A stretch of DNA of 45,237 bases from Coriobacteriaceae bacterium (GCA_031256895.1 JAIRPR010000165.1:1-45237), one strand, 5' to 3'. Numbered from the stretch's first letter, positions 6,248 to 45,237 are shown. The notes: generated by a model from the sequence alone, not told the origin. Numbers and translations: made by a program.

Positions 6248-6380
6248 CCGGGCTTCGTTCTCCTGCAGCTGACGAGCGCCCTATGGTACATGGCTCGATG
6301 GGGCGCTGGTCATCGACTTCGTGTCAGACCGCGAGGCAGCCCTTGCAACCCATGGCAAGCTTCGTTTGAAGAGGGAATGT

Positions 6381-8264
6381 TCATCCCTCGCTGGGGGCTT
6401 CATCGGTGGCGGTGCCTGCATCTGCACCTTCAAGGGCTCCTTCGCTGCCGCCTGAGGTGCCGTCTTGTACAGGAAGCGGCAGGCCGGTAGCTTGGCGCAC
6501 CATCTCTACATAGACCTGTGCCCCTTCTTCAGTGAGGTGGGTGCCATCGCCATCGAAGAGGCTGTCCTTGTCGGCCGAAAGCGAGAACCAATCGATGAGA
6601 TGCACGTTGGCATAGCGCTCGGCCGCCCGTGCCAAGGTCTCGTTGGTGCCGGTCACCCAGTTCTGCGGGCTGCGGGTGTTGACCAGGTAGATGCTCTTCT
6701 CAAGCCCTACGGCTTCGACAAGCTCATCAATCTGCTCATCGATGACCGGGCTGTTGGTGCCTAAGGCAAAGACCACAATGTTGCCGACCTCCCCGAACGC
6801 GTAATAGTAGTCGTAGACCTCCACACCTTCCCAGATCTGGCGGTTGACCGCAGAATCGATTACCCCGTTGGGGAAGGTGGCCTCGAAATAGGGGATCGCC
6901 CTCATCGAGACAGAATCCCCGATAAGCACTATGTCAAGCACCCGTTTGGGAATTGCCGGATCGGCATCCTTGGTGGGAGGCACATAGGTCGTGCCCCGTT
7001 GCTCCATGGCATCCAGGTCGGCGACGGCCGAGACCGAAGGTATGGCAACAAAACAGGCGACTGAGGCTGCCACCAGCACCCCCGCAGCACAAAAAGGAAC
7101 GATGCGGTTACGTAAGTAGCCAGCCAGGCTGAAAGACCCGGACCGAAGCCCGCGCAGGAGCCGTCCGATAGCTCCTTTTCGGATAGGGTCTTCAATGAAG
7201 CGGAAGGAAAAGGCCGCACAGGCCAGGATGACAGCCAGCTCGATGAGGTAGTACCACCAGGCAGTCTCGCCCGTGAAGTTGCTGGGCGTCATGAGCAGGG
7301 TGATGGGGTAATGCCACAGGTATATGCCGTAGGATCGCTTCCCTATCCAGACCAGGGGGTATACAGCCGCAGCCTTGCCCAGCACACTGGTGGGGTGTAC
7401 CATGACCGCAATAACCACGGCGGTCAGCAGCGAAGCCAAAAGGACGCCTCCCCGGTACATGAAGGGCGAAAAGCCATCCACGAAACCCACCATGGCAAAC
7501 AGACCGACCAAGGCAGCAATGCCTACGCCGTCGAAGACCACGCGCACGGGGCGTGAGAGGTTGAAGTCATGGGCGTGGGCAAGCTGGTTGCTGGGCCAGG
7601 CAAAAGCAAGGACCGCCCCGATCAAGAGCGAGAAGGCACGGGTGTCGGTGCCATAATAGACACGGCTGGGGTCGGCATTGGGGTTATAGAAGAACGCCAT
7701 GAGCAGGACCGAGACCAGCGCGATGACCAAAGATATACGGGTGAACACCTTCCGCTTCGCACCCAGCCCAAAGAAGATGGCCATGAACACCGGCCATACC
7801 AGGTAGAACTGTTCCTCGATGGCAAGCGACCAGAAATGCGTGAGGGGGGAAGGCGCACCCAGTGTCTCGAAGTACGAGACATCGCGGAATATGTACCACC
7901 AGTTGCTGTAAAAGAAGAGGGCAGGAGGCGTATCGGGGCGCATCTTGGTCAGCAGGTCGTGGTTGAAGATGGCGCACAGAACCGTAATACAGACCAGCAA
8001 GAACACAATAGCCGGCACCAGGCGTTTGACGCGGCGCAACCAAAAGGCCTTCAGGTCGATTGACTTTGTGCGGCTCCATTCGGCAAGCAACAGGCTGGTT
8101 ATCAGATAGCCGGACAAGACGAAGAACACCGTCACCCCCAGCAAGCCACCGGGTGCCCACACAAACCCGAAGTGGTAGGCAATGACCGCAAGCACGGCGA
8201 ATGCGCGGAGCCCATCCAAAGCAGGTATGTAACGGGTCTTGGGACCCGGTTGTGGCTGAGCCAC
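6381..8264 (-). CDS. Acyltransferase family 3 (OafA/YrhL-like) membrane protein with a C-terminal SGNH/GDSL domain
   Basis: N-terminus LDGLRAFAVLAVIAYHF...FFVLSGYLITSLLLAEW followed by about 10 hydrophobic helices. The C-terminal domain has LIGDSVS (GDS block) and DGTHLT (DxxH block). Confidence 0.9.
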   Translation of the reverse strand: MAQPQPGPKTRYIPALDGLRAFAVLAVIAYHFGFVWAPGGLLGVTVFFVLSGYLITSLLLAEWSRTKSIDLKAFWLRRVKRLVPAIVFLLVCITVLCAIFNHDLLTKMRPDTPPALFFYSNWWYIFRDVSYFETLGAPSPLTHFWSLAIEEQFYLVWPVFMAIFFGLGAKRKVFTRISLVIALVSVLLMAFFYNPNADPSRVYYGTDTRAFSLLIGAVLAFAWPSNQLAHAHDFNLSRPVRVVFDGVGIAALVGLFAMVGFVDGFSPFMYRGGVLLASLLTAVVIAVMVHPTSVLGKAAAVYPLVWIGKRSYGIYLWHYPITLLMTPSNFTGETAWWYYLIELAVILACAAFSFRFIEDPIRKGAIGRLLRGLRSGSFSLAGYLRNRIVPFCAAGVLVAASVACFVAIPSVSAVADLDAMEQRGTTYVPPTKDADPAIPKRVLDIVLIGDSVSMRAIPYFEATFPNGVIDSAVNRQIWEGVEVYDYYYAFGEVGNIVVFALGTNSPVIDEQIDELVEAVGLEKSIYLVNTRSPQNWVTGTNETLARAAERYANVHLIDWFSLSADKDSLFDGDGTHLTEEGAQVYVEMVRQATGLPLPVQDGTSGGSEGALEGADAGTATDEAPSEG

Positions 8265-30428: not shown

Positions 30429-31087
30429 GTTTCCCCTTTCTCCTCTTCTCTGGTCGATGGTGCCTCTGAGACACCAGGACAGGTCGGTATGACCTTTGCG
30501 TGCCCCAGGGCATCCCACCCGACGACTCATGCTTCTCAGGCTTTTCAGGCGTTCCCCGAACACGGCACCTTGCGAGGATAAACCTTGCCCCAAGGCAAGA
30601 CTCAAGGGGCAAGATTGGGCGAAAAGCGTGCGGATGCAGCTTCCCAAGGCGCGAAGCACTCGACTTCGGGGGTCATCCAGGCAAGCGTTTATGCAGGTGC
30701 TGAATCGAAGGGAAAGGGCTGGCCGTCTATCCTATCCTTATTGGAAGATAAAAAACTGCCCTAGGGGAAAGGATTGTTTGGGGTTTTGTTGCATCGCCCA
30801 CAGCGGCCGAACATCCACCGTGTAGCTCCTTTGATCGAGCCCCCAGCATACCTGCTCCATGCCGTTGGGCGAAAGCGGCTTGCGGGCGTGCCCTGCCTCT
30901 GCTAGCATGCCCCTGTTCGAGTCGCGGCCACCCCAGGAGGACACGCCCGGGGCGGCCGGTGATAGGCCTGCCGGGGAAGGCTGGGCTGCGGCGCCCCTCA
31001 GCGCTGCCGCCGCAGTCCCCCCTGAAGGCTTTGTCTGTGCCGCCCTTCTCGGAAAGGGGCGGCTTGAGTGGTGAGAGGAATGGCCTT

Positions 31088-34000
31088 ATGGAGGCTGACA
31101 GAACGCGGAGCCGCGGCCTGCGCCCGAGGGGCGCTCGGCCAGGGGGCCGGCTTGGGGGCAGGAAGCCCGACGAAAAGGACATGACGGGCCATAGCGCCCC
31201 GGGCAGCGCCATGGGCAGGCCTGGGACCCCGGGCAGCGCCATGGGCAGGCCCAAAGCCCCGCACGAGGCTCCCGGAAGGCGGCGGCCGGCGGCTGCCCGC
31301 AGGGCGCCGGCCTATGGGCACGGTGCCCATGGAGGACAGGCGCACAAGGCTTGCGCCCGCAAGGCGGCATGCTGCGGCACGGTGCCCGTGACAGGGAAGG
31401 GGATGGCGGCGCGCCGGCATGGCGCCCATGGAAGGGCCTGCGGCGCCCATGCCCCCTGTGGGGGCGGCCTCGCCCTGGCGCTCAGGCTCGCCCTTGCCCT
31501 GGGCGGCTTCGCCCTGGCTGCGCTCCTATGGTCCGCTCTCACGGGCTTGCTCTCGCTCGCCCTGGCCACCTTCGCCATAGGGGCATTGGGCGTCTCGCGC
31601 ATACAGGCGGCAGTGGGCGCCTTCGCGCTGGCGGGCGCCCTGGCCTTGGCGCCCCTCCTGCTCCATGCGGTGTTCCTGGCCGCCATGCGCGGCTACCGCG
31701 GCGGCGCCTGGGCCCAGGCGCGCGGATGGGCGCATCGGGCGGGGGCGTCGCTTGCGCGCTTCTACCCCCGCGTGCTGGCCCGCCTGGCCTGCTGCCTGGC
31801 TGCGGGTGGCTGCATCACCCTGGGGACGGGCACGCTGCCGCTGCCCTGGCCGTTGCAGGCGGCCGGGTGCGCCCTGCTGGCCGCGACGGGCGTAGCAGCC
31901 CTCGTCCTGGTCGGGAGGCTCTACCTAAGGCCCGGTGCGCGCCCAGGCCCAGGCGGCGGCGTGCGCCTCCCCGCACGCCCGAGGACGGCTGCCGCAACGG
32001 GGGGCGCGCCCGGCCGGGCGGTGCGCGCACTGCTCTCGGTCGCGCTCGCCGCAAGCCTGCTGCCGTCCGGCCTGCCGTCCCGGGCGCCGGGCGCCGGGGC
32101 TGTAGCCGCCGTGCCACAGGCCCAGGCGCCGGCGGCAGCCCCCTTGGCGCCCGCAGGGCGGCCTGCGGCTCCCAACTCCTACGAACCCTCGGGCAGCGGG
32201 GACGGGCAGGGGGGCATGCCTGCCGTGGCGCCTGCCGCCATCGCCGCGCCCGAGGCGCCGCAGGGCGCTTTGGCAGAGGTCGCCCACGACCGCTACTCGC
32301 GGACCTACCTCAACCGCGACGGCACCTACACCACCCGGGTGCAGTCGGAGCCCCTGACCTTCACCGACGTCGACGGCGTGGAGCGCGACATCGACAACAC
32401 CCTGGTTCTGAGGGACGGCGCCTACACGAACAGGGCGAACGGCTTCTCGGTGACGCTCCCTTCGGAGGGGGGCGCCGTCACGGTTGAGAAGGACGGCCTC
32501 ACCCTGGCCGCACGCCCGCTCTTCGCCACGCTCAAGGGCGCCTTCGCCCAGGGCAGCGCCGTGCGCTACAACGGCGCGGCACCGGGCATCGACCTCGAGT
32601 ACCGCGTCTGCGGGGGCTCGCTCAAGGAGGACGTCGTGCTTGCCATGCCGACCGGCCTGGAGGCCTTCGAGTACGTCCTGGAGGCCCCGGGGGCGGCCTT
32701 CTTCGCCGAGGCCGGAAGGGTGCTCGTCTTCCACGGCGGCAGCCTGGGCCCTGACGGGCGGCCCCTTGCGGGCGCGGAGCCGGCCCTCGCCATAGACGCG
32801 CCCCTGATGCGGGACGCACAGGGGCAGGCCTCCACGGCCATTGTCCTGGAGCTTCGGGAGGCCCCGGCGGGCGCTGCGGAAGACGGAGCCCAGGCGCCCG
32901 GCGGTGCGGCCGACGCGCAGGGCGCAGCCGCGGCAGCCGCCCCGGAAGGCGGGCAAGCCGGCGCCCCGGCCGCTGCCGCAGGCGGGGCGGCCGCCTCCAT
33001 CGGCACCGCCATCTGCGGCCCCGTGGGGGCCCCAGGCCCCCTGCCCGGCACGCCTGGGGGCGGCGCCGTCGTGCCCTGTGCCTACCGGGACGCCGCCCTT
33101 TTGCGCATAGCGCCCGACCGGGAATGGCTCATGGCGCCGGGGCGCGCCTACCCCGTGACCATCGACCCCTCCCATGCGCTCGCCGGAGGGAGCATCTCGC
33201 AAGGGGTCGTCCAGGCCTTCGCGGGCTGGTCGTCGGGGCCTGACCTCGAGCACAGCGTGCCGTACCTCTACGTGGGCCTCGAGGACGGCAGCCTCGTGGG
33301 CACGCCAGGCGTCACCTACGGGCAGTCCTGGTCGTACGTGAGGATAAACGACGTCGCCCCCTATGTCGCCGGCCTGCCCGACCGGGCTGTCCTGTCGGCC
33401 ACGCTGGCGGCGTACAAGTACGCAGGCGCCCCCGGCAGCGCCGGCGCCATGGTGGACGCGAGGATGGTGTGCGCACCGTGGGGGGGCGACGGGCGGCACA
33501 CCTGGAACAACCGCCCGGCCGGGCCGGGAGGCCTCGCCTACCTCGACAGCCAGGCCGTGCCCCAGGGCAAGGGGTGGATGCGCTTCGACGTCACCGACGC
33601 CTTCAAGGAATGGCGGCGCGACCCTGCGGCGAACCGGGGCGTCATGCTGACGCCCCGCAGCGAGGCGCAGCCTGCCGTGTGCCTCTCGGGCACGGGCAAC
33701 GCCCATGGGGCGCAGGCACTCTACATCGACCTCTCATGGACGGTGCCGGGGCCGGTCGACGAGGGGATGGCCCTTGCCGCCCCGCAGGTGGCCCTGCGCC
33801 CCTTGGCCGACAAGGGCCCCGCCCCCGCCCAGGCCTTCGCCGGCCTGTTCGCCGACGGCCTCGTCCGTCCGGCGCTCAGGGTGGACTACGTTCTCGAGCG
33901 CCTGCCCGCAGGGCCGGGCGGCACGGGCGCGCCTGCGCTTGCCGTGGCGCAGGGCGCCTACCCCAAGGCCGAGTACGAGCCCCTCTATCCGGACTCGGAC

Positions 34001-37000
34001 CCCTTCTTGGGCGAGGCGCCCTTCACGCTGGGCTACCACGGCCTGTCCGAGTCCAACTGGCAGACAGGCCTCTTCCCCGCAGCCCTGATAGGCCTCGACA
34101 CGTGTTACCGGGTGCGGGCCCGGGGCGTCCGCGTGCCGGACGCGTGGGCGAACCCTGGAGGCACTGCCGAGGAGACCCCCTGGGGCGCCTCCGACGCGTT
34201 CCTGGTCTACCGGGTGCGCGAGCAGGACGCCATCCCCTACCTGGCCGCTCACTACGGGGTGCCCCTCGCCACGGTCGCTGCCGACAACCGCTTGGGCGAC
34301 AGCCTGGCCATGCCGGGCGACACCCTCTTCATCAGGGGCCCCCGCACAGACGCCCCCTACACCCGCCCCTTCGAGCCGACGCTGGAGCACAGGCGGGCCA
34401 TAGTCTATGCCAACATGGGGCGCTCGCAGACGTCCGAGTTCGACATGGAGCCGGTGAACATGTGCACCGGGAACTTCTACCTGGAGCAGACGGACGCGGC
34501 CTCGCTCGACTACGGGCGCGAGTTCCGCATCGCCCGGTCCTACAACGCGCTCGCGCCCCAGGCGGCTGGGCCTTTCGGCAGGGGCTGGTCCAGCGTGCTC
34601 ACGCAGTCGCTCACCGCCCGGGCGGACGGGGGCGTGGCCTACACGGGCGAGGACGGGCGCCTGGTGATGCTCACGCCCCAGGAAGGGGGTTGGGCAGGCC
34701 CCGACGGCAGCGGCTACGTCCTTGAGAGCCACGGGGGCGCGGGCACGGTGCCCGGAGGGGACGGCGCGGACGGCACGGGCACGGGCGGGGCGGGAGCCGG
34801 GTCGGGAGGGTCGGGCACTGGCACGGGTGGGGCGGGCGCCTACACCTTGGAAAGGCCCGACGGCATCACGCTCACCTTCGATGCCTGGGGCATGCTGGCG
34901 GCCGTCACGGACCTGCACGGCCTTGCCGCCACGCTGGACCGCGACCAGGACTCCCGCCTGGTCAGGGTCACAAGCCCCGCAGGGCGCGTGTTCGGGGTCG
35001 GCACCGACGCCTCCGGCCGCATCAGCCGCATCGACCTGCCCGACGGCGCTGCCCTTCGCTATTCCTATGACGAGCAGGGGTACCTCGTCTCTGCCACCGA
35101 TGCGGACGGGGCCACCGTGCGCTACGAGTACGACGGGAATGGGCAGATGAGCGCCTGGTACGACGGCACCGGTGCCCGCGTCGCCGCCAACGCCTACGAC
35201 GGGCAGGGCAGGGTGGTCGCGCAGACGGACGCCCTGGGCAGCACCTCGACGGTCGCCTACGGGGAAGGCGTCACCGTGCTGACTGGCGCAGACGGCTCCG
35301 AGACGGCCTATGGGTACGACGGGCTCTTGCGGGCGACCTCCGTCACGCGCGGGGGGGCTGCCGTCCACAAGTCCTACGACGCGCAGGGGAGGCTCTCCTC
35401 TGAGACGGACGCCCTGGGCCGGACGGCTGCGTACTCCTACGACGAGGGCGGCAGGCTCGTCCGCGTGACGCGCGCGGACGGCTCGTTCCAAGAGGCGGCC
35501 TATGACGGGCGCGGCCTGCCCCTTAGGGTGCGCGGCCTCGACGGCGCCGTGACAGAGAACGCCTACGACGACGACGGCTGCCTCGTGGCCGTCACCTATG
35601 CCGACGGCGCCTCCCGGGGCTTTTCCTACGACGCGCTCGGCCGCGTGGCGTCGATGACCGACGAGGAGGGCGCGACCACCACGTTCGCCTACGATGGCAC
35701 GGCCTCCCTCACGGTGAGGGATCCCCTGGGCAACGAGACGGTGTGCCACTACGACGCGATGGGCCGCCTGGTCACCGAGACCGGCCCCACTGGCCTTGAG
35801 CGCCGCACCTCCCACACCCCGGGCGGGAGGGTCGCGGGCATCGGGGGGAGCGGCGGGGCGTCGGCGTCGTACACCTACGATGCCGCCGGGAGGTGCATCG
35901 CGGCGACCGACGCGCGGGGCACGGCCACCACCTGCAGCTATGATGCCGCGGGAAGGCCCGTCCTGGTCACGGGGCCGCTCGGCCAGAGGATTGCCTACAC
36001 CTATGACGCCTGCGGGAACAAGGCGTCCGAGGCCGACGCCCTGGGCAACACCACCCGCTACTCCTACGACGCGTTCGGCCGCCCGGTCGCCGTGACCGAC
36101 GCCCTGGGCGCCACCGAGGCCTTCGCCTACGACGCGGCAGGAAGGGTGTCCTGGTCGGCCGACAAGGCAGGCAACGTCACGACCTACGGGTACGGCCCCA
36201 CCTCGGACGTGCCCGAGCGCGAGGAGGGGCCCCAGGGCGTCACAGAGCGCACCTTCGACGCCGAGGGGCGCGCCGTGCACGTCCGGCTGCCCGACGGCAG
36301 CGCCCACAGCTACGCCTACGACGCGCGCGGGCGGCTCGTGTCCGACACCGACCAGGCGGGGCTTGCCATAAGCTACGCCTACGACCGGGCAGGCAGGCTC
36401 ACGGCGGCGTCCGACAGCGCGGGAAGGTCCTTCTCCTTCGCCTACGACGCGGCCGGCCGCCTCACCGCCATGGGCGACCCCTTGGGGCGCCGGAGCGCCT
36501 ATGCATACGACGGCGCCGGGCGCCTCGCCACGGCCACGGCGCCCGGCGGCCTGGTGACCGCCTACGCCTACGACGCGGAAGGCAGGCTGGCGTCGGTCAC
36601 CCGCCCCGACGGCACAACGGAGTCCTACGCCTACGACGCGGCGGGCGCCCTTGCCTCAGCCACGGACGCCGCCGGCAACACCACCCTGTTCCACTACGAT
36701 GCCGCAGGCGCCCTTGCCGCGACGGTCGACGCCCTGGGCACCACGACCACCTACGCCTACGACGAGAGGGGGCTGCCAGTCCTGGTGAGGGGCCCCTTGC
36801 AGGAGGCGACCGCCTTTGCCTACGACGCGCTCGGGCGCCCGGTGGCCGTGACCGACGCGCTCGGCAACACCACGCAGGCCTGCTACGACGCACGGGGGCT
36901 CGTCGTCAAGGTGACGGCCGCGGACGGCACGTGGCAGTCATACGGCTACGACGCCGCAGGGCGCCTCGTCCAGGCAGAGGACGGGGCGGGCCTCCTGGCA

Positions 37001-40000
37001 AGGCACTCCTACGACGGGCTCGGCAGGCTCGTGCGCACGGAGGGCCCGCAAGGCCTCCTGGCCGCCTACGCCCACGACCCCTACGGGCGCACCGTCTCGG
37101 AGACCGACGCGCTCGGCAGGAGGAGGGAGCTCTCCTACGACGCCTGGGGCGGCCTTGTGGAGGAGGTCGGCTTCAACGGGGATCGGACGTCCTACGGGCG
37201 CGACCTTTTGGGGCGCGTCGTGCATGTGTCGAGCAGCACAGGCCCGGCCTTCAGCTACGCCTACGACGAGGCGGGCAACCCCTCCGAGCGCACCGACGCC
37301 TCCGGGCGCCGCGAGTCGTTCAGCCATGACGCGCTCGGGCGCGTTGTGCGGGCGGTAGACGCGGCAGGGCAGGAGCGCACCTTCGCCTACGACGCGGTAG
37401 GCAACCCCGTCCTGGAGGCCGACCAGCTGGGCGCCGTGTGGCAGGCGGGCTACGACGCGGCCGGCCGCCTCGTGTCATGGACGGATGGAGAGGGCGCGTC
37501 CACCGCCTATTCCTACGACCTTTCAGGCAACCTGACGGCAGTGACCGACCCGGAGGGGGGCACGTGGGGGTATAGCTACGACGCGCTCGGGCGCCTCGTG
37601 CAGAGCACCGACCCCTTGGGGCGTGCGACCTCCTTCGCCTACGACGCGCTCGGGCGCACGGCGGCGGTGGAAAGCCCCGCAGGCGGCGTGACCTCCTTCG
37701 CCTACGATGGCCGCGGCAACCCCGTCAAGGAGACGGACCCCCTGGGCTACGTGACCGCCCGGGCATACTCTCCCGAGGGCTGGCTCTTGTCGGCCACGCT
37801 GCCGGGCGGGCTCGTGCAGGGCTACGAGCACGACCGGATAGGGCGCGTGACCCGTGAGTACGACAACGCGGGGCGGTCGGCCTCCTACACCTATGACGCA
37901 CGGGGCGACCTGGTACGGGTGGCCGACCAGGACGGCGCGACGGCCTCCTTCGCCTACGACCGGGCCCACCGGCCTGTCGTGCAGACGGGCCCCGGGGGCG
38001 CGCGCACCCTGTACTCCTACGACGAGAGGGGCAACCTGGCCGCCGCCGCGCTGCCGGGCGGCGCCCGCTACGCCTACACCTACGATGCGCTCGACAGGCC
38101 GGTGACAGGCACCAACGGCATCGACGCGCCCTTCACCTTCTCCTACGGCGCACGGGGCGGCCTGGCCTCGGCCGCACAGGGGGAGCTGTCGTGGTCCTGG
38201 TCCTACGACAAGGCGTCGAGGCTGACGGGCGCCACAGCGCCCGGCGGGGCGTCCGAGGCGTGGGAGTACGACGGCCGCGGCCTGCCCGTCTCCCACACCG
38301 GGAGGGACGGGGCGGCCATGCGCTACACCTACGACGCCGCGCGCCAGCTGACGGGCGCGACCGACGCCCTGGGCAACGCGAGGACATGGTCCTATGACGC
38401 GGGCGGCAACCTGGCTAGCGCCACCGACGCGCTGGGCAACACGACCGCTTACTCCTATGACCTGCGGGGCAGCCTGGTGCAGGTGCGCGACCCCCTGGGG
38501 CGCACCAGCGAGTACGCCTGCGACGCGATGGGCAACACCGTGTCGGCGCGCCGCTTCGCCGCCGAGGGCGCGCCTGCCGCGCCTGCCGCTGGGCAGGGCC
38601 TAGGCCAGGGCATGGGCTGGTCCTACGGCTACGACCTCCATGGCAACCTCGTGGCGGCCACGTCCCCGACGGGCGGCACCGAGCGCTTCACCTACGACGC
38701 CGCCTCCCGCCTGATAGGCGCGACAGCCCCTTCCGGGAGGTCCGTGTCCTACCGCTACGACAGGGCGGGGCGGCTTGCCGGGAAGGGCTACAGCGACGGC
38801 AGCACGCCCGTCGCCTACTCCTACGACCAGGCAGGGAACCGGGTGGCGATGGAGGACGCCACAGGGGCGAGCTCCTATGCCTACGACGCCCTCGGCCGTC
38901 CGGCCTCCCTCACGCAGGCGGACGGGCGGTCCTTGGCCTATGCCTACGATGCCTACGGGCGCCTGGCCAGCGTCGCCTACCCTGGCGGCAAGGAGGTCTC
39001 CTACGCCTACGGCCAGGACGGCTCCATCTCGGCGGTGGGCGACTCGCAGCTGGGCGAGACCCGCTACTCCTATGACGCGGCAGGCAGAATGGCCGGCTGC
39101 GAGCGCCCCGACGGGACGGCCACCTCCTACACCTACGACGCCCTCGGGCGCCTGGAGCGGCTTGTGAACACGCGCGGCGGCGTGCTGCTCTCTTCCTTCG
39201 CCTACACCTACGACGCCGAGGGGCGCATCGCCACAGAGGGCTCCTGGCAGGCGCCCGCCCAAGGCGCCGGCGCCCCCAGGGCCGCTGTGCGCAGCTTCTC
39301 CTACGACGCGGCAGGGCAGCTCTCCGGCTGCACCGAGGACGTGGGGGGCGACCGTTCCACGACCTCCTATGCCTACGACGCCATGGGCAACCGCGTGTCG
39401 GAGACGGTCGAGGCGGGCGGGACGGCCACAAGGGTCGAGAGCTCCTACGACGCGCAGGGGCGCCTGGTGCGCCAGCACGATAGCGGGAGCGGCGCCGCCA
39501 CCTCCTTCGAGTGGGACGCCGACGGCAACCTCGTGGCCAAGCGCCGCGGGGGCGGGGGCGCGGCCGCGGCGGCCACGGGCTACCTCTACGACGCCGAGGG
39601 CCGGCTTGTGGCCGTGAGCCGGGACGGGGCGCTTGTCATGGCCGCCGCCTACGACGGCGACGGCAACCGGGTGCTCCAGGCCTACCGGCAGCCGGCGCCT
39701 CTCGGCGGCGCCCCCGGGCTGCCGACGACGCCGGCGCCCCTGCCCCTGCCCGCGCTCGGGACGGCTGCGGAGCAGCCCCCTGCGGCAAATGCCGGCCGCA
39801 CGCAAGCACAGGGCTTCGCCGGCCATGCCTTCGAGTACGGCATGGGGCTTGGCCTGGCAAGCCTTGCCTGCGCCCCCGCCCTGTCGTTCGCCCCCTTGGC
39901 CCAGCACCTCTTCACGGAGGCCTTCAACGCATGCGCCGCGTTCTGGGGCGACTGGCAGCGCGGCGCCGCGCCCGCAGGCCCAGGCGGCGAGGCCGGCCCG

Positions 40001-41881
40001 GCCATGGGCAGCGCCGGCCTTCCCGAGTATCCCTTCTGCGGGATGTCCTGCCCCCCGGCTGTGCAGGCGCAGGGTGGCGAGGGCGCCTCGGCCGACGGAG
40101 GCGCCTCGGCCGACGGCGCGGGCGGCGCCATGCGCCTCGGCTACGGGCTGTCCTGCTACCTGAACGACACCAGCTTCACCGACGTGCAGGTGGCCATGGA
40201 GTTCGACGGGGAGGGCAAGGCCAAGGCGTCGTACACCTACGGCAATGGGCGCATCATGGCCACGCTGCCCGACGGCGCCATGAGGTCGTACCTCTACGAC
40301 GGGCGGGGCAGCGTGGCCCAGGCCTTCGAGACAGGGGCGCCGGGGTCGCCCGCCGCGGCCCAGGGCCAGGCGCAGCCCCGCGCCCAGGCACCGGGCGCCG
40401 TCGCGCACTCTTACGCCTACAGCCCCTTCGGGCAGGCCTTGGGCGCGGACCCCTACCTGCCCGCGTTCACGTACAACGCCGAGGACCACGCCCCCGAGGC
40501 GGGGCTCACCTACCTGCGCGCCCGCTACTACGACCCTGCGGCAGGCTGCTTCACCTCCAAGGACGCCTTCCTCGGCCGCACGGGCCAGCCGGCCTCCCAG
40601 AACCGCTTCGCCTTCGCCCAGGCAGACCCCGTGAACAACCAGGACCCCTCGGGGCACGCCGTCACGGCCAACGCCTACGAGCGGGGCATGGAGGCAGCAG
40701 GCGGCATCAACGAGATATACAACTTCTACGTGGGCCGCACCCTGCAGGACTCCTACAACAGCGCGAACGCCGCCTTCCGTTCCCAGCTCGGCAATGCCTA
40801 TGGGGCAGACCACACCTCCCTCGAGGCGGTGAACGCCATAGCGCAGGTGTCCCAGGCGTGCGCCAACCGCTACATAAGCGCGGGCGCGGCAGCCGCCGGG
40901 CGGGCAGGCTCATCATGGGGCTGTGCCCCCGGCGCGATCACCGGCCAGGCCGTCGCCGCCTTCTCTGCCGACGTGGGCGCCGCAAGGGCCACCGTGAACT
41001 CGCTCATAGCCAGCGTCAAGGCCAACAAGCAGCACCAGTACGAGGAGTACCGGGCCTACCTCGAGGAGCAGGCGGCGCTCGCGTACCGGGCGCAGGCACA
41101 GGGCCTGGCCGCCCTGGACCTCGTGCTGAGGGGCATGTACGGCCCTGCGAGGGGCTTGGGCGGCGCTGCCGCCGCAGGCATCATGGGAGGGATGGCGCCG
41201 CTCAGCCTGTTCGAGGCCGAGGCCATGGCGGGGCTTCGGGTGGTGCGCCCGTACTGGGACTTCAGCTACCCGGGCGGGATGCACGCCAAAGTCGTGGGAT
41301 ACCTGGCAGGCAAGCATGGCCTTGAGCAAGAACAATCGATAACCAAAGGGAGCAGGTACGACCTGTACAAGCCTTTGACGAACGAGGTATGGGAGGTGAA
41401 GCCCGTCACCTACATGCCAGGCTCCCACCTCCATAGCGCCCTGGTGGATCAAATGAAGAGGTACAAGGTGAACGGAGTAAAGGAGGGGCATCCCCTCGGG
41501 AACGAGAGCCTGGTCCTGGACGGCTACCAGGTGAGGACCTACAGCACGGATCATACGGGATACGTCTATTACAACTTCTGGCGCGACGAGCGCCCGCAGG
41601 AGCAGCAGGCACGCCAACGCGAGCTGGTGAGCGAGAAGAGCCTGCGAAACGTCGTGGTGAACCCCTTCAAGAATGCCACGCTGGGCTACTACGAAGACTA
41701 CTACGCGACCCATCCTGCTGCCACGGTCACCTGGTCGGACGGCCTGATAGTCACGGCAGGGATAATCACCATCGTTGTGGGCGGTACCATCATCGGCCTT
41801 TCGGGAGGGGTGGGCTCACCGGCAGGAGTCGCCGCCATATGCGCTGGGTCGGACATGGTTGCCGTGGGCGCCATGGCCTGA
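31088..41881 (+). CDS. Giant Rhs/YD-repeat polymorphic toxin (N-terminal polytopic region, DNRLRE-like and LysM-like modules, Rhs shell, variable C-terminal toxin)
   Basis: Single open frame 30959-41881. The start is uncertain (ATG 31088 with GAGAGG upstream; alternatives 31181 and 31403). The Rhs N-plug is PVNMCTGNFYLEQTD...FGRGWS. I counted more than 60 YxYDxxGR-type repeats by hand. The Rhs core end is YLRARYYDPAAGCFTSKDAFLG...ADPVNNQDPSGH. The LysM-like segment is YRVREQDAIPYLAAHYGVPLATVAADNRLGDSLAMPGDTLFI. Confidence 0.92.
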   Translation: MEADRTRSRGLRPRGARPGGRLGGRKPDEKDMTGHSAPGSAMGRPGTPGSAMGRPKAPHEAPGRRRPAAARRAPAYGHGAHGGQAHKACARKAACCGTVPVTGKGMAARRHGAHGRACGAHAPCGGGLALALRLALALGGFALAALLWSALTGLLSLALATFAIGALGVSRIQAAVGAFALAGALALAPLLLHAVFLAAMRGYRGGAWAQARGWAHRAGASLARFYPRVLARLACCLAAGGCITLGTGTLPLPWPLQAAGCALLAATGVAALVLVGRLYLRPGARPGPGGGVRLPARPRTAAATGGAPGRAVRALLSVALAASLLPSGLPSRAPGAGAVAAVPQAQAPAAAPLAPAGRPAAPNSYEPSGSGDGQGGMPAVAPAAIAAPEAPQGALAEVAHDRYSRTYLNRDGTYTTRVQSEPLTFTDVDGVERDIDNTLVLRDGAYTNRANGFSVTLPSEGGAVTVEKDGLTLAARPLFATLKGAFAQGSAVRYNGAAPGIDLEYRVCGGSLKEDVVLAMPTGLEAFEYVLEAPGAAFFAEAGRVLVFHGGSLGPDGRPLAGAEPALAIDAPLMRDAQGQASTAIVLELREAPAGAAEDGAQAPGGAADAQGAAAAAAPEGGQAGAPAAAAGGAAASIGTAICGPVGAPGPLPGTPGGGAVVPCAYRDAALLRIAPDREWLMAPGRAYPVTIDPSHALAGGSISQGVVQAFAGWSSGPDLEHSVPYLYVGLEDGSLVGTPGVTYGQSWSYVRINDVAPYVAGLPDRAVLSATLAAYKYAGAPGSAGAMVDARMVCAPWGGDGRHTWNNRPAGPGGLAYLDSQAVPQGKGWMRFDVTDAFKEWRRDPAANRGVMLTPRSEAQPAVCLSGTGNAHGAQALYIDLSWTVPGPVDEGMALAAPQVALRPLADKGPAPAQAFAGLFADGLVRPALRVDYVLERLPAGPGGTGAPALAVAQGAYPKAEYEPLYPDSDPFLGEAPFTLGYHGLSESNWQTGLFPAALIGLDTCYRVRARGVRVPDAWANPGGTAEETPWGASDAFLVYRVREQDAIPYLAAHYGVPLATVAADNRLGDSLAMPGDTLFIRGPRTDAPYTRPFEPTLEHRRAIVYANMGRSQTSEFDMEPVNMCTGNFYLEQTDAASLDYGREFRIARSYNALAPQAAGPFGRGWSSVLTQSLTARADGGVAYTGEDGRLVMLTPQEGGWAGPDGSGYVLESHGGAGTVPGGDGADGTGTGGAGAGSGGSGTGTGGAGAYTLERPDGITLTFDAWGMLAAVTDLHGLAATLDRDQDSRLVRVTSPAGRVFGVGTDASGRISRIDLPDGAALRYSYDEQGYLVSATDADGATVRYEYDGNGQMSAWYDGTGARVAANAYDGQGRVVAQTDALGSTSTVAYGEGVTVLTGADGSETAYGYDGLLRATSVTRGGAAVHKSYDAQGRLSSETDALGRTAAYSYDEGGRLVRVTRADGSFQEAAYDGRGLPLRVRGLDGAVTENAYDDDGCLVAVTYADGASRGFSYDALGRVASMTDEEGATTTFAYDGTASLTVRDPLGNETVCHYDAMGRLVTETGPTGLERRTSHTPGGRVAGIGGSGGASASYTYDAAGRCIAATDARGTATTCSYDAAGRPVLVTGPLGQRIAYTYDACGNKASEADALGNTTRYSYDAFGRPVAVTDALGATEAFAYDAAGRVSWSADKAGNVTTYGYGPTSDVPEREEGPQGVTERTFDAEGRAVHVRLPDGSAHSYAYDARGRLVSDTDQAGLAISYAYDRAGRLTAASDSAGRSFSFAYDAAGRLTAMGDPLGRRSAYAYDGAGRLATATAPGGLVTAYAYDAEGRLASVTRPDGTTESYAYDAAGALASATDAAGNTTLFHYDAAGALAATVDALGTTTTYAYDERGLPVLVRGPLQEATAFAYDALGRPVAVTDALGNTTQACYDARGLVVKVTAADGTWQSYGYDAAGRLVQAEDGAGLLARHSYDGLGRLVRTEGPQGLLAAYAHDPYGRTVSETDALGRRRELSYDAWGGLVEEVGFNGDRTSYGRDLLGRVVHVSSSTGPAFSYAYDEAGNPSERTDASGRRESFSHDALGRVVRAVDAAGQERTFAYDAVGNPVLEADQLGAVWQAGYDAAGRLVSWTDGEGASTAYSYDLSGNLTAVTDPEGGTWGYSYDALGRLVQSTDPLGRATSFAYDALGRTAAVESPAGGVTSFAYDGRGNPVKETDPLGYVTARAYSPEGWLLSATLPGGLVQGYEHDRIGRVTREYDNAGRSASYTYDARGDLVRVADQDGATASFAYDRAHRPVVQTGPGGARTLYSYDERGNLAAAALPGGARYAYTYDALDRPVTGTNGIDAPFTFSYGARGGLASAAQGELSWSWSYDKASRLTGATAPGGASEAWEYDGRGLPVSHTGRDGAAMRYTYDAARQLTGATDALGNARTWSYDAGGNLASATDALGNTTAYSYDLRGSLVQVRDPLGRTSEYACDAMGNTVSARRFAAEGAPAAPAAGQGLGQGMGWSYGYDLHGNLVAATSPTGGTERFTYDAASRLIGATAPSGRSVSYRYDRAGRLAGKGYSDGSTPVAYSYDQAGNRVAMEDATGASSYAYDALGRPASLTQADGRSLAYAYDAYGRLASVAYPGGKEVSYAYGQDGSISAVGDSQLGETRYSYDAAGRMAGCERPDGTATSYTYDALGRLERLVNTRGGVLLSSFAYTYDAEGRIATEGSWQAPAQGAGAPRAAVRSFSYDAAGQLSGCTEDVGGDRSTTSYAYDAMGNRVSETVEAGGTATRVESSYDAQGRLVRQHDSGSGAATSFEWDADGNLVAKRRGGGGAAAAATGYLYDAEGRLVAVSRDGALVMAAAYDGDGNRVLQAYRQPAPLGGAPGLPTTPAPLPLPALGTAAEQPPAANAGRTQAQGFAGHAFEYGMGLGLASLACAPALSFAPLAQHLFTEAFNACAAFWGDWQRGAAPAGPGGEAGPAMGSAGLPEYPFCGMSCPPAVQAQGGEGASADGGASADGAGGAMRLGYGLSCYLNDTSFTDVQVAMEFDGEGKAKASYTYGNGRIMATLPDGAMRSYLYDGRGSVAQAFETGAPGSPAAAQGQAQPRAQAPGAVAHSYAYSPFGQALGADPYLPAFTYNAEDHAPEAGLTYLRARYYDPAAGCFTSKDAFLGRTGQPASQNRFAFAQADPVNNQDPSGHAVTANAYERGMEAAGGINEIYNFYVGRTLQDSYNSANAAFRSQLGNAYGADHTSLEAVNAIAQVSQACANRYISAGAAAAGRAGSSWGCAPGAITGQAVAAFSADVGAARATVNSLIASVKANKQHQYEEYRAYLEEQAALAYRAQAQGLAALDLVLRGMYGPARGLGGAAAAGIMGGMAPLSLFEAEAMAGLRVVRPYWDFSYPGGMHAKVVGYLAGKHGLEQEQSITKGSRYDLYKPLTNEVWEVKPVTYMPGSHLHSALVDQMKRYKVNGVKEGHPLGNESLVLDGYQVRTYSTDHTGYVYYNFWRDERPQEQQARQRELVSEKSLRNVVVNPFKNATLGYYEDYYATHPAATVTWSDGLIVTAGIITIVVGGTIIGLSGGVGSPAGVAAICAGSDMVAVGAMA

Positions 41882-41927
41882 GACAATGTACAGAAAAGCT
41901 AGACAGGAAGAAGAAGGGAGCAAGGCC

Positions 41928-43184
41928 ATGCTCAGGAAGTTCAGGGTGTACGAGTTCAAGGTGCCGAACAGGCAGGAGTACCGAAGTCTCATAAGGGGGC
42001 TCGCGGGCGGCTACGCCCACGGCGGGCTGCTGTTCGAGGTGTACGGCCTCGACTGGTTCGAGGGCGCCCCGCCGCCACTCGAGCAGATGGTGGCATCCAA
42101 CAAGGTGATAGGCAGGAACAAGGGGCTCGGCAGGTACGCCTGCGCCCACAGCTTCACCTATCAGGCGGGGTCGGCGCCGGGGCCGGACGGCACGGTGGAG
42201 TTCACCGACCATCAGAGCACGTCCCTGGCGCTCTCCAACCTGGGGGGCGCCTGGGACGAGCCCAACCCCTGCGTGCCGGAGGGCGATGTGGGCTTCCCCG
42301 AGCTCGATGCACTCCTGCGCACGCTCACCAGGAGGTCCTTTTCTACGCTGCTCTTCGTGATCGACGGCATCCCCTGGTTCGGCGCCCCTGCCCGCCCCGC
42401 CACCTACGGCCTCAGGAAGGCGAGGGGCAAGTACGAGTGCGCCCTGGGCTACCTCTCGCCCTCGATCGCCGTGTCGGTCATAGGCTACGAGAGGAGCTAC
42501 ACGGTGCGCGCCTGCTTCGAGGTGACCCCGCCCGAGGGCGCAGGCGGCGAGCCCGACGAGTCGGCGCACCTCGCCCGCCTTGTGGCCATGCTGGGCAGGC
42601 CCGCCTCGGCCACGACGCACTACGCCCCCGGCGACGAGGCCGACAGGCCTTTGTGGGACCTGGCCGGCAGGCGCTTCGAGGAGGAGATGGCGCGGGTGAG
42701 GGGCTGCCACGACGAATGGTGCCGGGGGCTGCCGCACCGGGTGGAGGGCAAGCCCGTGCCGCCCTACTACCTGACGCCGCCCTACACGAGGCCCGAGAAC
42801 GTCACCAAGGCGACCAACAAGGCGCTGGCGCAGGCCATGAAAGACGCCCCATGGAGGAAGGACCCCCGGCCGTCTGAGGACGGGCAGTGCTTCGTGCGCC
42901 GCGACCGCTTCGGCAACTCCTTCGACCTGCGTGTCTTCATCAGGAAAGAAGGGTACTACGTGCAGACGGCGCTGGACTATTGCGGCGCGATCGACCCGAC
43001 GAAGATGCTCAAGATGTGGATCGGCCTCGGCTGCAAAGAGATGTACGACACGGCCGAGGTGCCCCTGTTCTTCGAGAACGTGCTGGCCTTGGCAGGGCGC
43101 TACTTCGACGCCCTGGAGGAGGCGTACGGGCGGGTGATGGACGAGACGGGCGCCCTGGCCTACTTCCACCCCGACCTCGCCTGA
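41928..43184 (+). CDS. Hypothetical protein; candidate cognate immunity protein of the Rhs toxin tip
   Basis: First ORF downstream of the Rhs stop on the same strand. ATG 41928 has GGGAG 7 nt upstream (an alternative ATG at 41886 has no SD). 418 aa with no TM segment and no motif I recognise. The track version (41775) overlaps the Rhs 3' end and is probably too long. Confidence 0.6.
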   Translation: MLRKFRVYEFKVPNRQEYRSLIRGLAGGYAHGGLLFEVYGLDWFEGAPPPLEQMVASNKVIGRNKGLGRYACAHSFTYQAGSAPGPDGTVEFTDHQSTSLALSNLGGAWDEPNPCVPEGDVGFPELDALLRTLTRRSFSTLLFVIDGIPWFGAPARPATYGLRKARGKYECALGYLSPSIAVSVIGYERSYTVRACFEVTPPEGAGGEPDESAHLARLVAMLGRPASATTHYAPGDEADRPLWDLAGRRFEEEMARVRGCHDEWCRGLPHRVEGKPVPPYYLTPPYTRPENVTKATNKALAQAMKDAPWRKDPRPSEDGQCFVRRDRFGNSFDLRVFIRKEGYYVQTALDYCGAIDPTKMLKMWIGLGCKEMYDTAEVPLFFENVLALAGRYFDALEEAYGRVMDETGALAYFHPDLA

Positions 43185-43454
43185 TGCCCGAGGCCGCCCG
43201 GAGCCCCCGCCCGCCAGCCAGCGGGGGCTCGCCCAACCTGCGGGAGCAGCCTTCGGCCAGAGGGCTGTCCTGCCAGCAGGGGAGCCATCGTTGTCAGCAC
43301 AGGGTGCGCCGTCCCGCCTGCCCGCTAGGAAGATCTCGCTTGGTGCCTTCTCCTGTGCGTCAACCAACCTGTCGCCACGAGACTTTCCTTCGCGGCCAGG
43401 ATCGAGGTGCGCAACGAGCAACAACCGGATAATTTCCAAAGTAACCGCAACACT

Positions 43455-45073
43455 GGGGGGTGCTGAAAAAACTTGGACTCAGAAGAGACAGGAGATTGTC
43501 CATGCACACGCAAGAGCAACGTCAAAGAGCGGTCGAGGCGTTCCTCGAAACCGGCTCGTATGCGGCTGCTGTCAGGGCCATAGGCTGTGGGTCGCGATGG
43601 TCTGTGCAGCGCTGGGTCAGCGACTACGGGAAAGACGGCCATGTGAAGGCAGGGCGCACCAAATGGCTCAAGTTCCACTGAGGGGCAGAGGCTTGCCGCA
43701 GTGAGCCACTACCTGGGCAACGGGCATAACGCCTCTGAGACCATAAGGGCGCTGGGCTGCCCCAGCCACACGCTTTTAGGCGCTTGGACAAAAGGGATCG
43801 CGCCAGAGGCTGTAAAACCAAGGAAGGACAGGGTAGAATGCTCCTTGGAGCAAAGGACCGCCGCCGTGGCCTCGCTATGCGACAAAGAGCGAACCGTGGC
43901 CGATGTCGCAAGGGGGACAGGGGCACACAAGGCAGGCCTGCACGAATGGAGAGGACAGCTGCTCGGGAAGGAAGTGGATGCCGTCTTGCCGGACAATGAC
44001 GAGGCCCCATCGGCCGAGAACGAGGACGACCTGCTGGGACGGATCGCCGCATTGCGCAAGGAGAAGGAGGCCGTCGACAGGGAGCTGTACCTGGCGAGGC
44101 TTGAGCCCGCAGTCCGGCAAGGAGCGCTCGAACTGATAAAAAAAGACCCGGGCATCGGCCTGGAGAAGCTGGACAACAGAGAAAGGACAGTCCTTGCCGA
44201 TGCCCTGAAGACGACGTTCCCCCTGAGTGACCTGCTGCCCATGCTGCGTCTGCCCAAGAGCAGCTACTACTATCAAAGGGGCGCGATCGCGAGAGGCGAC
44301 AAGTACGCGGTATTGCGCCAAAGGGTGCGCGTTGTGTCCCAGGACAGCGGCGGGTGCTACGGCTACCGCCGCATACACGCCGTCATCGTCCGTGACGGCA
44401 CGGTCGTCTCGGAGAAGGTGGTGGCCAGGCTGATGGCAGAGGAAGGCATGGCTGTCAAAGGCAGGAAGAGGCGCAGGTACAGCTCCTATGCAGGGGAGAT
44501 ATCGCCAGAGGCCCCCAACCTCCTGGAGCGCGACTTCCATGCCGGGGCGCCCAACGACAAATGGCCCACCGACATCACGGAGTTCCGCATACCGGCGGGC
44601 AAGGCCTGTCTCTCGCCGATCATAGATTGCTTCGACGGGCTTGCGGTGTCATGGACGATAGGCACAAGCCCCAATGCCGAGCTTGTGAACACGATGCCCG
44701 ACAAGGCCTTGGCGTCCCTCGGCGAAGGCGAGCTGCCAAAGGCCCACAGCGACCGAGGCTGCCATTACCGCTGGCCGGGATGGATCGGTCGGATGGGGGG
44801 CGCGGGGCTTGAGCGCTCCATGTCAAAGAAGGGCTGCTCGCCCGACAACGCTGCATGCGAGGGGTTCTTCGGGAGGCCGAAGGACGAGTCCTTCTACGGC
44901 AGGTCATGGAAGGGCGTGGCCATTGATGGGTTTGCCGCAAGGCTTGATGCCTCTATACGATGGTATAATGACGTGCGCGTCAAAAAGTCATGGGGCTGCC
45001 TCAGCCCCATGGAGTACAGGCAAAGCCTGGGTCTGGCGGCCCAGGCGAGTCCAAAAAAATGTCCGCACCCCCC
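43455..45073 (+). mobile_element. IS3-family insertion sequence (about 1.6 kb)
   Basis: Imperfect terminal inverted repeats: left GGGGGGTGCTGAAAAAACTTGGACTC (43455-43480) versus right GAGTCCAAAAAAATGTCCGCACCCCCC (45047-45073), sharing the outer GGGGGGTGC and inner TTGGACTC blocks. The interior encodes HTH and DDE transposase segments. No target-site duplication could be identified. Confidence 0.7.
43502..43681 (+). CDS. IS3-family transposase N-terminal HTH fragment (OrfA part 1)
   Basis: ATG 43502 with AGGAG upstream. MHTQEQRQRAVEAFLETGSYAAAVRAIGCGSRWSVQRWVSDYGKDG is an IS3 OrfA-type HTH. It ends at TGA 43679-43681, while a second, similar HTH continues in the +1 frame. Confidence 0.7.
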   Translation: MHTQEQRQRAVEAFLETGSYAAAVRAIGCGSRWSVQRWVSDYGKDGHVKAGRTKWLKFH

Positions 45074-45237
45074 AGGGGGGTGCTGTGCCACTATCAGGGT
45101 AGATGCAACAGAATCAGCCGATAAAGGGCTGGCGGGTGCCCAAAAGGCTGCATTTCGCCGGTGTTGCGCTGTGTTTGAGGGCATGCTTGCGCCAGCCCCT
45201 TGCCCATCCACTTCCAGAGAAAGCGCAACGGCCCGTG
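43701..45237 (+). CDS. IS3-family transposase main frame (second HTH + leucine-zipper-like region + DDE integrase core). It has no in-frame stop before the window end and is absent from the supplied ORF track.
   Basis: I translated this frame by hand (codon starts divisible by 3). It is open from 43647 and the first start-like codon is GTG 43701. Translation: ...EGQRLAAVSHYLGNGHNASETIRALGC...LLGRIAALRKEKEAVDRELY...LPKSSYYYQRG...YGYRRIHAVI...APNDKWPTDITEF...HSDRGCHYRW...SPDNAACEGFFG...LSPMEYRQSLGLAA. Homology ends near 45040, but the frame stays open through the right IR to nt 45237. Confidence 0.75.
   Translation, partial: MSHYLGNGHNASETIRALGCPSHTLLGAWTKGIAPEAVKPRKDRVECSLEQRTAAVASLCDKERTVADVARGTGAHKAGLHEWRGQLLGKEVDAVLPDNDEAPSAENEDDLLGRIAALRKEKEAVDRELYLARLEPAVRQGALELIKKDPGIGLEKLDNRERTVLADALKTTFPLSDLLPMLRLPKSSYYYQRGAIARGDKYAVLRQRVRVVSQDSGGCYGYRRIHAVIVRDGTVVSEKVVARLMAEEGMAVKGRKRRRYSSYAGEISPEAPNLLERDFHAGAPNDKWPTDITEFRIPAGKACLSPIIDCFDGLAVSWTIGTSPNAELVNTMPDKALASLGEGELPKAHSDRGCHYRWPGWIGRMGGAGLERSMSKKGCSPDNAACEGFFGRPKDESFYGRSWKGVAIDGFAARLDASIRWYNDVRVKKSWGCLSPMEYRQSLGLAAQASPKKCPHPPGGCCATIRVDATESADKGLAGAQKAAFRRCCAVFEGMLAPAPCPSTSRESATAR

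Follow-up and report, generated by a model that had tools for sequence, protein, structure and literature searches.

Which toxin is carried by the large Rhs protein of a Coriobacteriaceae bacterium, and how could its cargo reach the cytoplasm of a target cell? The question is raised by a stretch of 45,237 nucleotides (GCA_031256895.1, JAIRPR010000165.1:1-45237), in the following called the window. An open reading frame (ORF) at 30959-41881 on the plus strand encodes an Rhs protein of 3640 amino acids (aa). A first reading of this DNA (the sequence-only reading) had located the motif DPSGH and counted 407 residues C-terminal to it; both were reproduced in our analysis. For these residues a candidate DNase-type toxin had been proposed, with a hydrophobic tail and from a family that could not be named. 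As a whole, the cargo is best explained by an adaptor domain, a nuclease of the Tox-REase-9 branch (REase, restriction endonuclease) and a membrane-like tail, with the likely immunity gene located downstream. We consider this explanation probable. The coordinates of all features are given in Table 1.

Toxin core and family assignment

By comparison of sequences the tip was identified as that of an Rhs polymorphic toxin. An RHS_repeat match (Pfam, E 5.4e-12) lies just upstream of it. A profile of the upstream region of the toxin relatives aligns with the core ends of solved Rhs/TcC structures, as far as DPSGH. The motif stands in the context PVNNQDPSGH (aa 3224-3233), and PVNNxDPSGH was also found in the relatives P0001, P0002 and P0006. 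RHS/YD repeats and a conserved core with the DPxG motif are both present, and cleavage at this motif is predicted. Furthermore, varied toxin modules occur on one upstream sequence, and P0001, P0013 and P0016 are orphan short Rhs C-terminal genes.

The core module was compared with 1.84 billion representative proteins in an exhaustive HMMER search, using a profile of two sequences (the window module and P0001). The search yielded 29 proteins at E <= 1e-3, 11 of them at E <= 1e-10. The confident relatives either form the C-terminal end of an RHS/YD protein or stand alone as short, orphan Rhs C-terminal cassettes. A word-indexed search with a 22-sequence core profile added only one protein. With a 6-sequence alignment, five loci were detected in a collection of 185,579 species-representative genomes other than that of the window. 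Large proteins with weak matches (P0028, P0029 and P0035, E 1e-4 to 1e-5) are probably spurious and carry neither Rhs nor other toxin-delivery domains.

In 22 aligned cores, with 25-56% identity to the window core, the residues H3442, V3445, D3468, E3479, K3481, P3482, Q3498, Y3502 and G3510 are invariant. E3458 is found in 18, R3466 and W3478 each in 19 of the 22 sequences. The invariant histidine belongs to the sequence GGMHAKVV, which starts at aa 3439. D3468 is part of RYD, and E3479 and K3481 are part of WEVKP. Judged by this alignment, the spacing of the D/ExK residues is beyond chance, as it is invariant in 22 homologous cores.

The fold was predicted with AlphaFold2. A model calculated from 24 sequences reached a predicted local distance difference test score (pLDDT) above 90 over module residues 10-120; an earlier model from two sequences (pLDDT 55.7) was not used. 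The topology of the model is a1-b1-b2(D)-b3(ExK)-a2(QxxxY)-b4. In module numbering, a helix at 14-27 with H16 is followed by strands at 30-36, 39-45 (with D42) and 50-56 (with E53-x-K55). A second helix at 64-78 carries Q72 and Y76; three further strands and a helix come after it, with a strand placed at 90-94. By this predicted arrangement the module would belong to the PD-(D/E)xK superfamily.

The model was also compared with known structures. The best geometric match in the PDB is the PD-(D/E)xK homing endonuclease I-Bth0305I (3r3p), a weak match with a probability of 0.5, a TM-score of 0.43 and a root mean square deviation (rmsd) of 4.5 A. The top-ranked PDB matches of Foldseek, of RelE/ParE type, were disregarded because of an rmsd of 9-16 A. 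Matches in BFVD were weak as well (E 2e-3 to 0.2), and those with high probability were mostly restriction-endonuclease-fold proteins. The named ones, whose probabilities range from 0.66 to 0.98, include a homing endonuclease, Vsr, DUF559 and restriction enzymes. These comparisons are consistent with the fold assignment, but alone they are not decisive.

The family can be named through intermediates. PF15650 (Tox-REase-9) is matched by seven of 24 members over the H...D...EVKP...Q..Y region. The score of P0021 is 27.3 bits, equal to the gathering cut-off, and the six members below the threshold span 12.8-23.9 bits, among them P0036 (23.9) and P0033 (20.0). P0021 was itself found with the two-sequence profile at E 1.4e-8. 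The branch of the window is thus connected to P0021, and P0021 to the gathering score of PF15650, which indicates homology with Tox-REase-9. In the searched text of the defining paper, the signature of Tox-REase-9 is given as GxxxH, E, D, ELKP and YxxE, with an association with RHS and with Imm54 as immunity family (Zhang et al. 2012, PMC3482391). The corresponding residues G3439..H3442, E3458, D3468, E3479-V-K-P3482 and Y3502 are present in 18-22 of the 22 cores.

Hence, the module shares with Tox-REase-9 a REase-fold core with G..H on helix 1, E, D, E[LV]KP and a tyrosine on helix 2. The position at the C-terminus of RHS-repeat proteins, with the immunity gene next to it, is shared as well. 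In contrast, the spacing in the window is GxxH instead of GxxxH, and valine replaces leucine in ELKP. The glutamic acid of YxxE is not conserved; instead, an invariant glutamine is found four residues before the tyrosine (QxxxY). The window sequence gives no PF15650 match at E <= 1 and so stays below the gathering cut-off, and its downstream protein belongs to an unnamed family of ~400 aa, not to Imm54. Furthermore, the hydrophobic tail, found family-wide here, lies outside the 88-position Pfam model and is not mentioned in the searched part of the 2012 text (PMC3482391). From these sequence relationships we conclude that the module is a divergent Tox-REase-9 branch beyond the reach of the Pfam model.

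In general, the nuclease proposed in the sequence-only reading gained support from the invariant catalytic candidates, the confidently modelled core, the relatives reaching Tox-REase-9 and the mainly REase-fold matches in BFVD. D3468, E3479 and K3481 are located where they had been placed. The acidic helix residue that had been added to them could not be found: helix 1 of the model carries no acidic residue here, its conserved residue is H3442, and the conserved acid E3458 lies on strand 1. The family that had been left unnamed can now be assigned by the matching relatives and the motif set, although PF15650 fails to match the window sequence itself.

DNA is the most likely substrate of the putative nuclease, for two reasons. 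First, a QxxxY motif on helix 2 is a typical feature of DNases of the RecB/Cas4 type. Secondly, a classical REase active site is described for the REase toxin clades in the part of Zhang et al. (2012, PMC3482391) that was searched. The fold matches, being DNA endonucleases, agree with this substrate. A toxin of the same fold and family could also cleave RNA, e.g. transfer RNA (tRNA); E479, a PD-(D/E)xK toxin of contact-dependent growth inhibition (CDI), likewise acts as a tRNase. Four PD-(D/E)XK toxins of the CdiA-CT type are listed in PMC9086364: those of TA271 and YpIII are Zn-dependent DNases, and that of Bp1026b acts on tRNA(Ala) with Mg2+. Thus, the fold alone does not fix the substrate, and a DNA-binding accessory domain was not detected in the Pfam search. 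Given QxxxY and the kind of fold matches, we regard RNA as a rather unlikely substrate.

Adaptor domain and downstream gene

The cargo behind DPSGH is tripartite, with a helical adaptor, a core of ~120 aa, and a polar linker with a hydrophobic tail. Across eight sequences 35 columns of the adaptor are invariant, and no Pfam or NCBIfam match was obtained for it. When the whole tip was used for a word-indexed search of 5.8 billion proteins, only six relatives were found, and among them the C-terminal module of the window occurs in P0001 alone. P0002, a Coriobacteriales bacterium by its source name, and P0004 carry DUF4474 (PF14751) after the adaptor; in P0003 and P0005 long Gly-rich hydrophobic domains follow. 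A metagenome scan yielded eight further adaptor loci with other modules after the adaptor, among them one containing HExxH and helical modules with small C-terminal domains. The C-terminal modules were compared for P0002-P0005 and L013-L019, and the adaptor loci are L013-L020 and L005.

Altogether, at least 15 related Rhs tips with unrelated C-terminal modules carry the adaptor. At least six unrelated modules were found on the same DPSGH and adaptor sequence. Within the collections searched, it is found on Rhs tips only. The differing modules after the adaptor indicate that in this Rhs lineage the variable region begins ~150-190 residues past the cleavage motif, and not at the motif. As far as can be judged from sequence comparison, the predicted cleaved cargo begins with a shared adaptor, which this lineage keeps before many different toxins.

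Two further groups of tips were noticed on the same adaptor. In P0003, P0005 and L019, the last ~150 aa of the tip form a long hydrophobic domain that is rich in Gly and Ala and devoid of enzymatic motifs; these C-termini are candidate pore-forming Rhs cargoes. In L013 and L016, the adaptor is followed by a second helical module with a GDYxNA...S..P..G motif. This motif is perhaps reminiscent of the PT-TG pre-toxin domain.

An Ala/Gly-rich helical stretch of about 200 aa had been described after DPSGH in the sequence-only reading. The first 193 residues do contain 37% Ala and Gly, but the first ~140 of them form the conserved domain and are not filler. The lower G+C content noted for the compact module was also found, with 57.7% over 41280-41700 compared to 73.8% in the remaining ORF and single 60-nucleotide lines down to 50-55%. 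By codon position, G+C is 0.58 in the module versus 0.68 in the rest for the first position (GC1), 0.38 versus 0.59 for the second (GC2) and 0.81 versus 0.92 for the third (GC3). The drop occurs mostly at GC1 and GC2. Thus, it reflects a protein rich in Lys, Tyr and Asn more than foreign codon usage, and was rejected as a sign of recent foreign origin.

Downstream of the toxin a gene for a protein of 418 aa was detected. The protein is predicted to be cytoplasmic, has no transmembrane segment and reaches a 19-residue Kyte-Doolittle maximum of 1.16. It gave no match in Pfam (E <= 1), NCBIfam or the PDB. In four more loci (L001, L003, L004 and L008), a homologue lies directly 3' of the toxin. 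In L001 the homologue comes after P0001, in L004 after P0009, and in L003 after an upstream fragment that is a toxin tail. In L008, from a Clostridia metagenome-assembled genome (MAG), it follows P0013 (BLASTP E 5e-11). The pair of toxin and downstream gene is therefore kept in five loci, including the window, and in two phyla, represented by Coriobacteriales-like metagenome contigs and the Clostridia MAG.

Since the gene follows the toxin in five loci of two phyla, it is likely the cognate immunity gene, as far as gene order and homology can tell, and it is not Imm54. At E <= 1, no Pfam family matches the downstream genes of the window or of six relatives; an association with Imm54 was not found in these. 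An immunity protein that is soluble and cytoplasmic suits a toxin with a catalytic domain acting in the cytoplasm. The genes downstream of the distant toxins in L005, L006 and L009 have no detectable relation to the candidate of the window, which indicates that this immunity family is specific to a subclade. Such a change of partner among distant members is commonly seen in pairs of toxin and immunity genes.

Some of these loci showed additional features. The immunity homologue of L001 (6259-7490) is frameshifted into the overlapping ORFs 6259-6861 and 6741-7490, by decay or by a sequencing error. Upstream, this locus, which carries P0001, contains an AbiEii gene and a DDE transposase. In L005 (3192-7079), the distant member P0016 is followed by a 382-aa gene without Pfam match and then by a poly-immunity array with Imm11, Imm70, DUF4304 and SUKH. 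In the window, a G+C-rich inverted repeat (GGAGCCCCCGC...GCGGGGGCTC) is located at 43199-43232, just past the immunity stop codon. It has no T-run and was not called by the terminator scan.

Hydrophobic tail and proposed mechanism

The ORF ends with LIVTAGIITIVVGGTIIGLSGG..., and its best 19-residue Kyte-Doolittle window is 2.38. A tail was recorded where the last ~65 residues contained such a window with a value of 1.4 or more. By this measure, 20 of the 22 complete relatives have one, including P0021, so the hydrophobic Gly-rich ORF end pointed out in the sequence-only reading is real. P0001, P0009, P0012, P0033 and the partial gene of L003 share one form of the tail: a hydrophobic stretch, ED, (T/S)GG.G, DDPAS and a short amphipathic end. 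This form persists although the cores of P0001, P0009, P0012 and P0033 are highly divergent. The recurrence in relatives with divergent cores suggests that the tail is a selected feature of this toxin type. By analogy with other hydrophobic cargoes, it may insert into the target cytoplasmic membrane and help the nuclease to cross or to dock.

A sortase- or exosortase-type C-terminal sorting signal was set aside for the tail. Such signals have their motif ahead of the transmembrane segment and a basic tail behind it, whereas here a motif with Pro comes after the hydrophobic segment and no basic tail is present.

The tail might instead serve the producer, by holding the cargo in the Rhs shell, by plugging the shell or by anchoring the protein in the membrane during Sec export, the lineage being of Gram-positive type. 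It is kept in all delivery contexts, dedicated secretion genes are missing near the Rhs gene, and the Rhs shell of Tse5 chaperones a hydrophobic cargo (PMC10684867). However, the same adaptor and type of Rhs core occur with DUF4474 or other soluble toxins without such a tail. The tail thus travels with the toxin type and not with the shell, which favours a role on the target side over packaging. A producer-side function is accordingly held to be improbable, though it keeps some weight.

Much less probable is killing by membrane damage, with the Gly-rich tail as pore or depolariser and the REase-like domain only as a scaffold or targeting module. The window tail contains GxxxGxxxG (G3609, G3613 and G3617), and the sister tips P0003, P0005 and L019 end in their long Gly-rich hydrophobic domains on the same adaptor. 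A pore former carried by an Rhs protein is known with Tse5-CT (PMC9637101, PMC10684867). Yet the full catalytic set is invariant, which would be needless for a scaffold, and the immunity candidate is soluble and cytoplasmic with no transmembrane segment. Furthermore, a long hydrophobic domain with several conserved GxxxG zippers, as in pore formers of the Tse5-CT type, was not detected: the tail is a single segment of ~45 aa with one GxxxGxxxG, and this motif is not conserved in the relatives.

The suggestion that the hydrophobic end is a frameshift artefact, a linker really running into the downstream ORF, can be dismissed: a mechanical ORF (41775-43184) in a different frame does overlap the Rhs ORF at its end, but the stop codon at 41879-41881 is followed by the ribosome-binding site AAGGGAG and an ATG at 41928, and independent relatives end alike with the same separate downstream gene.

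For the nuclease with a membrane-like tail, the following mechanism is proposed. Autoproteolysis at DPSG/H would free the cargo of 407 aa. In the target cell, the tail would insert into the cytoplasmic membrane, and the nuclease domain would cross it or dock there. D3468, E3479 and K3481, together with H3442, E3458, Q3498 and Y3502, would then bind a divalent metal and cleave the phosphodiester bonds of nucleic acids by hydrolysis. The producer would be protected by the downstream cytoplasmic protein of 418 aa, which would bind the toxin.

Several results weigh against this interpretation. The tip and the module of the window have no match in Pfam or NCBIfam even at E <= 1, and no solved structure matches them by sequence. 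With Foldseek, nothing below E 0.06 was found for the module model in the PDB. In the literature searched, Tox-REase-9 appears only in the defining comparative-genomics paper of 2012 and PF15650 in none, and no biochemical characterization was found. The tail variant of the window (GLSGGVGSPAG) lacks the acidic ED...DDPAS motif of the closest relatives, and in the AlphaFold2 model the tail is a low-confidence coil and not a helix. Finally, the 407-aa cargo (estimated at ~42 kDa) is large compared to the cargoes of 15-16 kDa in solved type VI secretion system (T6SS) Rhs shells (PMC10684867). The repeat region of the window protein comprises ~2,070 aa, from the DUF6531 match near aa 1164 to aa 3229. 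It is roughly twice as long, so the Rhs shell may be larger.

Genomic context and comparison with known systems

Table 1 Features of the Rhs cargo and of the region downstream of it (window coordinates)
Feature	Nucleotides	Residues (aa)	Strand	Remarks
DPSGH, Rhs aspartyl autoproteolysis motif	40643-40657	3229-3233	+	Start of the C-terminal fragment predicted to be released
Conserved pre-toxin/adaptor domain	40673-41095	3239-3379	+	Motifs EAAGGINEIYNFYVG, GAAAA, GCxPGAxT
Variable Gly/Ala/Met-rich linker, adaptor to core	41096-41236	3380-3426	+	Unalignable with the same region of P0001 or P0009
Tox-REase-9-like toxin core, predicted restriction-endonuclease fold	41237-41596	3427-3546 (120 aa)	+	Homology, invariant residues, AlphaFold2 model
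Candidate catalytic residues	41282 (H3442), 41360 (D3468), 41393 (E3479), 41399 (K3481), 41450 (Q3498), 41462 (Y3502)	H3442, E3458, D3468, E3479, K3481, Q3498, Y3502		
Polar Gln/Glu/Arg-rich linker, core to tail	41597-41728	3547-3590	+	Length and sequence differ among relatives; pLDDT <70
Hydrophobic small-residue-rich tail and stop codon	41729-41881	3591-3640	+	One transmembrane-length segment, GSPAG turn, short second hydrophobic segment
Ribosome-binding site AAGGGAG	41914-41920		+	7 nucleotides upstream of the ATG of the downstream gene
Candidate cognate immunity gene, unnamed family	41928-43184	418 aa	+	Gene linkage in five loci
HTH_28 ORF of IS3 element	43445-43678		+	
Open frame with HTH_Tnp_1, HTH_21, rve, rve_2	43647-45236	530 codons	+	Runs off the window end

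The start codon and the export signal of the Rhs ORF are uncertain. The mechanical start is GTG, and the first ~430 aa (30959-32250) are rich in Arg, Ala and Gly with several hydrophobic stretches (aa ~170-330). The DUF6531 match is weak (22.3 bits versus a cut-off of 24.1 bits) and starts only at aa ~1164. A low-complexity insertion of ~170 aa rich in Pro, Ala and Gly (~39840-40350, aa ~2960-3130) splits the C-terminal Rhs repeat/core region shortly before the final core and DPSGH.

The flanking genes are ordinary and encode a major facilitator superfamily (MFS) transporter, a MerR regulator, molybdopterin oxidoreductases and aminotransferases. Near the Rhs gene, neither secretion-system genes nor an Eag-like gene were found in the window. 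The immunity gene is followed directly by an IS3-family transposase (43445-45237, plus strand). The window contains no Rfam family, no tRNA and no orphan cassettes, and both the tip and the immunity gene occur in it only once.

In general, the locus is of a known kind, an Rhs polymorphic toxin with a REase-fold tip and an immunity gene. Four features go beyond this: the Tox-REase-9 branch missed by Pfam, the family-wide hydrophobic tail, the adaptor after the cleavage site and the new candidate immunity family. Formerly unassignable Rhs tips are now placed in the Tox-REase-9 clade, a whole branch of which is missed by the Pfam model. The candidate immunity family of ~400 aa is newly defined and spans two phyla. 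Nuclease tips are common among Rhs toxins, but the way in which a released Rhs cargo crosses the target cytoplasmic membrane is largely unexplained (PMC10684867). A small nuclease core joined to a C-terminal hydrophobic segment, behind an adaptor reused in this lineage, offers a handle on Rhs entry mechanisms.

Three known systems are comparable with this cargo. In Tse5 of Pseudomonas aeruginosa, the Rhs shell shields a hydrophobic cargo that inserts into membranes (PMC10684867). As in Tse5, an Rhs shell would here carry a cargo with a membrane-inserting hydrophobic sequence, and the C-terminal fragment would be released by autoproteolysis (PMC9637101, PMC10684867). The membrane-like tail on an encapsulated Rhs cargo is therefore less unusual than had been claimed when it was first, and correctly, pointed out. 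In contrast, Tse5-CT (~16 kDa) is wholly a membrane toxin with no enzymatic domain, whereas here a tail of ~45 aa stands on a nuclease-type domain in a cargo of 407 aa.

For prePAAR effectors of the T6SS, transmembrane segments are implicated in the translocation across target-cell membranes (Ahmad et al. 2020, PMC7773334). As in the window, hydrophobic segments are carried by a toxin whose catalytic domain must reach the target cytoplasm. In prePAAR effectors these segments are found at the N-terminus, outside the Rhs shell, and depend on Eag chaperones, while the segment described here forms the extreme C-terminus of the cargo.

In CdiA-CT regions, an entry domain shared at the N-terminus is combined with a variable toxin domain (PMC9086364). 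The PD-(D/E)xK toxins among them resemble the cargo of the window in their two-part tip, with an N-terminal domain common to different toxins and a catalytic domain after it. No sequence match and no significant structural match with the window core was found for them. CDI toxins are delivered by the CdiA filament instead of an Rhs shell and have no C-terminal hydrophobic tail. By analogy with these systems, the C-terminal hydrophobic hairpin could be a self-contained device for membrane entry, by which the Rhs nuclease passes the cytoplasmic membrane of the target with no dedicated receptor, and the adaptor the Rhs counterpart of the cytoplasm-entry domain of CdiA-CT. We put this forward tentatively, as an idea with a limited chance of being right. 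Interest in the locus would grow should the tail or the adaptor turn out to be an entry device. If both were, they would provide a genetically separable route of Rhs cargo to the cytoplasm, particularly in Gram-positive-type bacteria.

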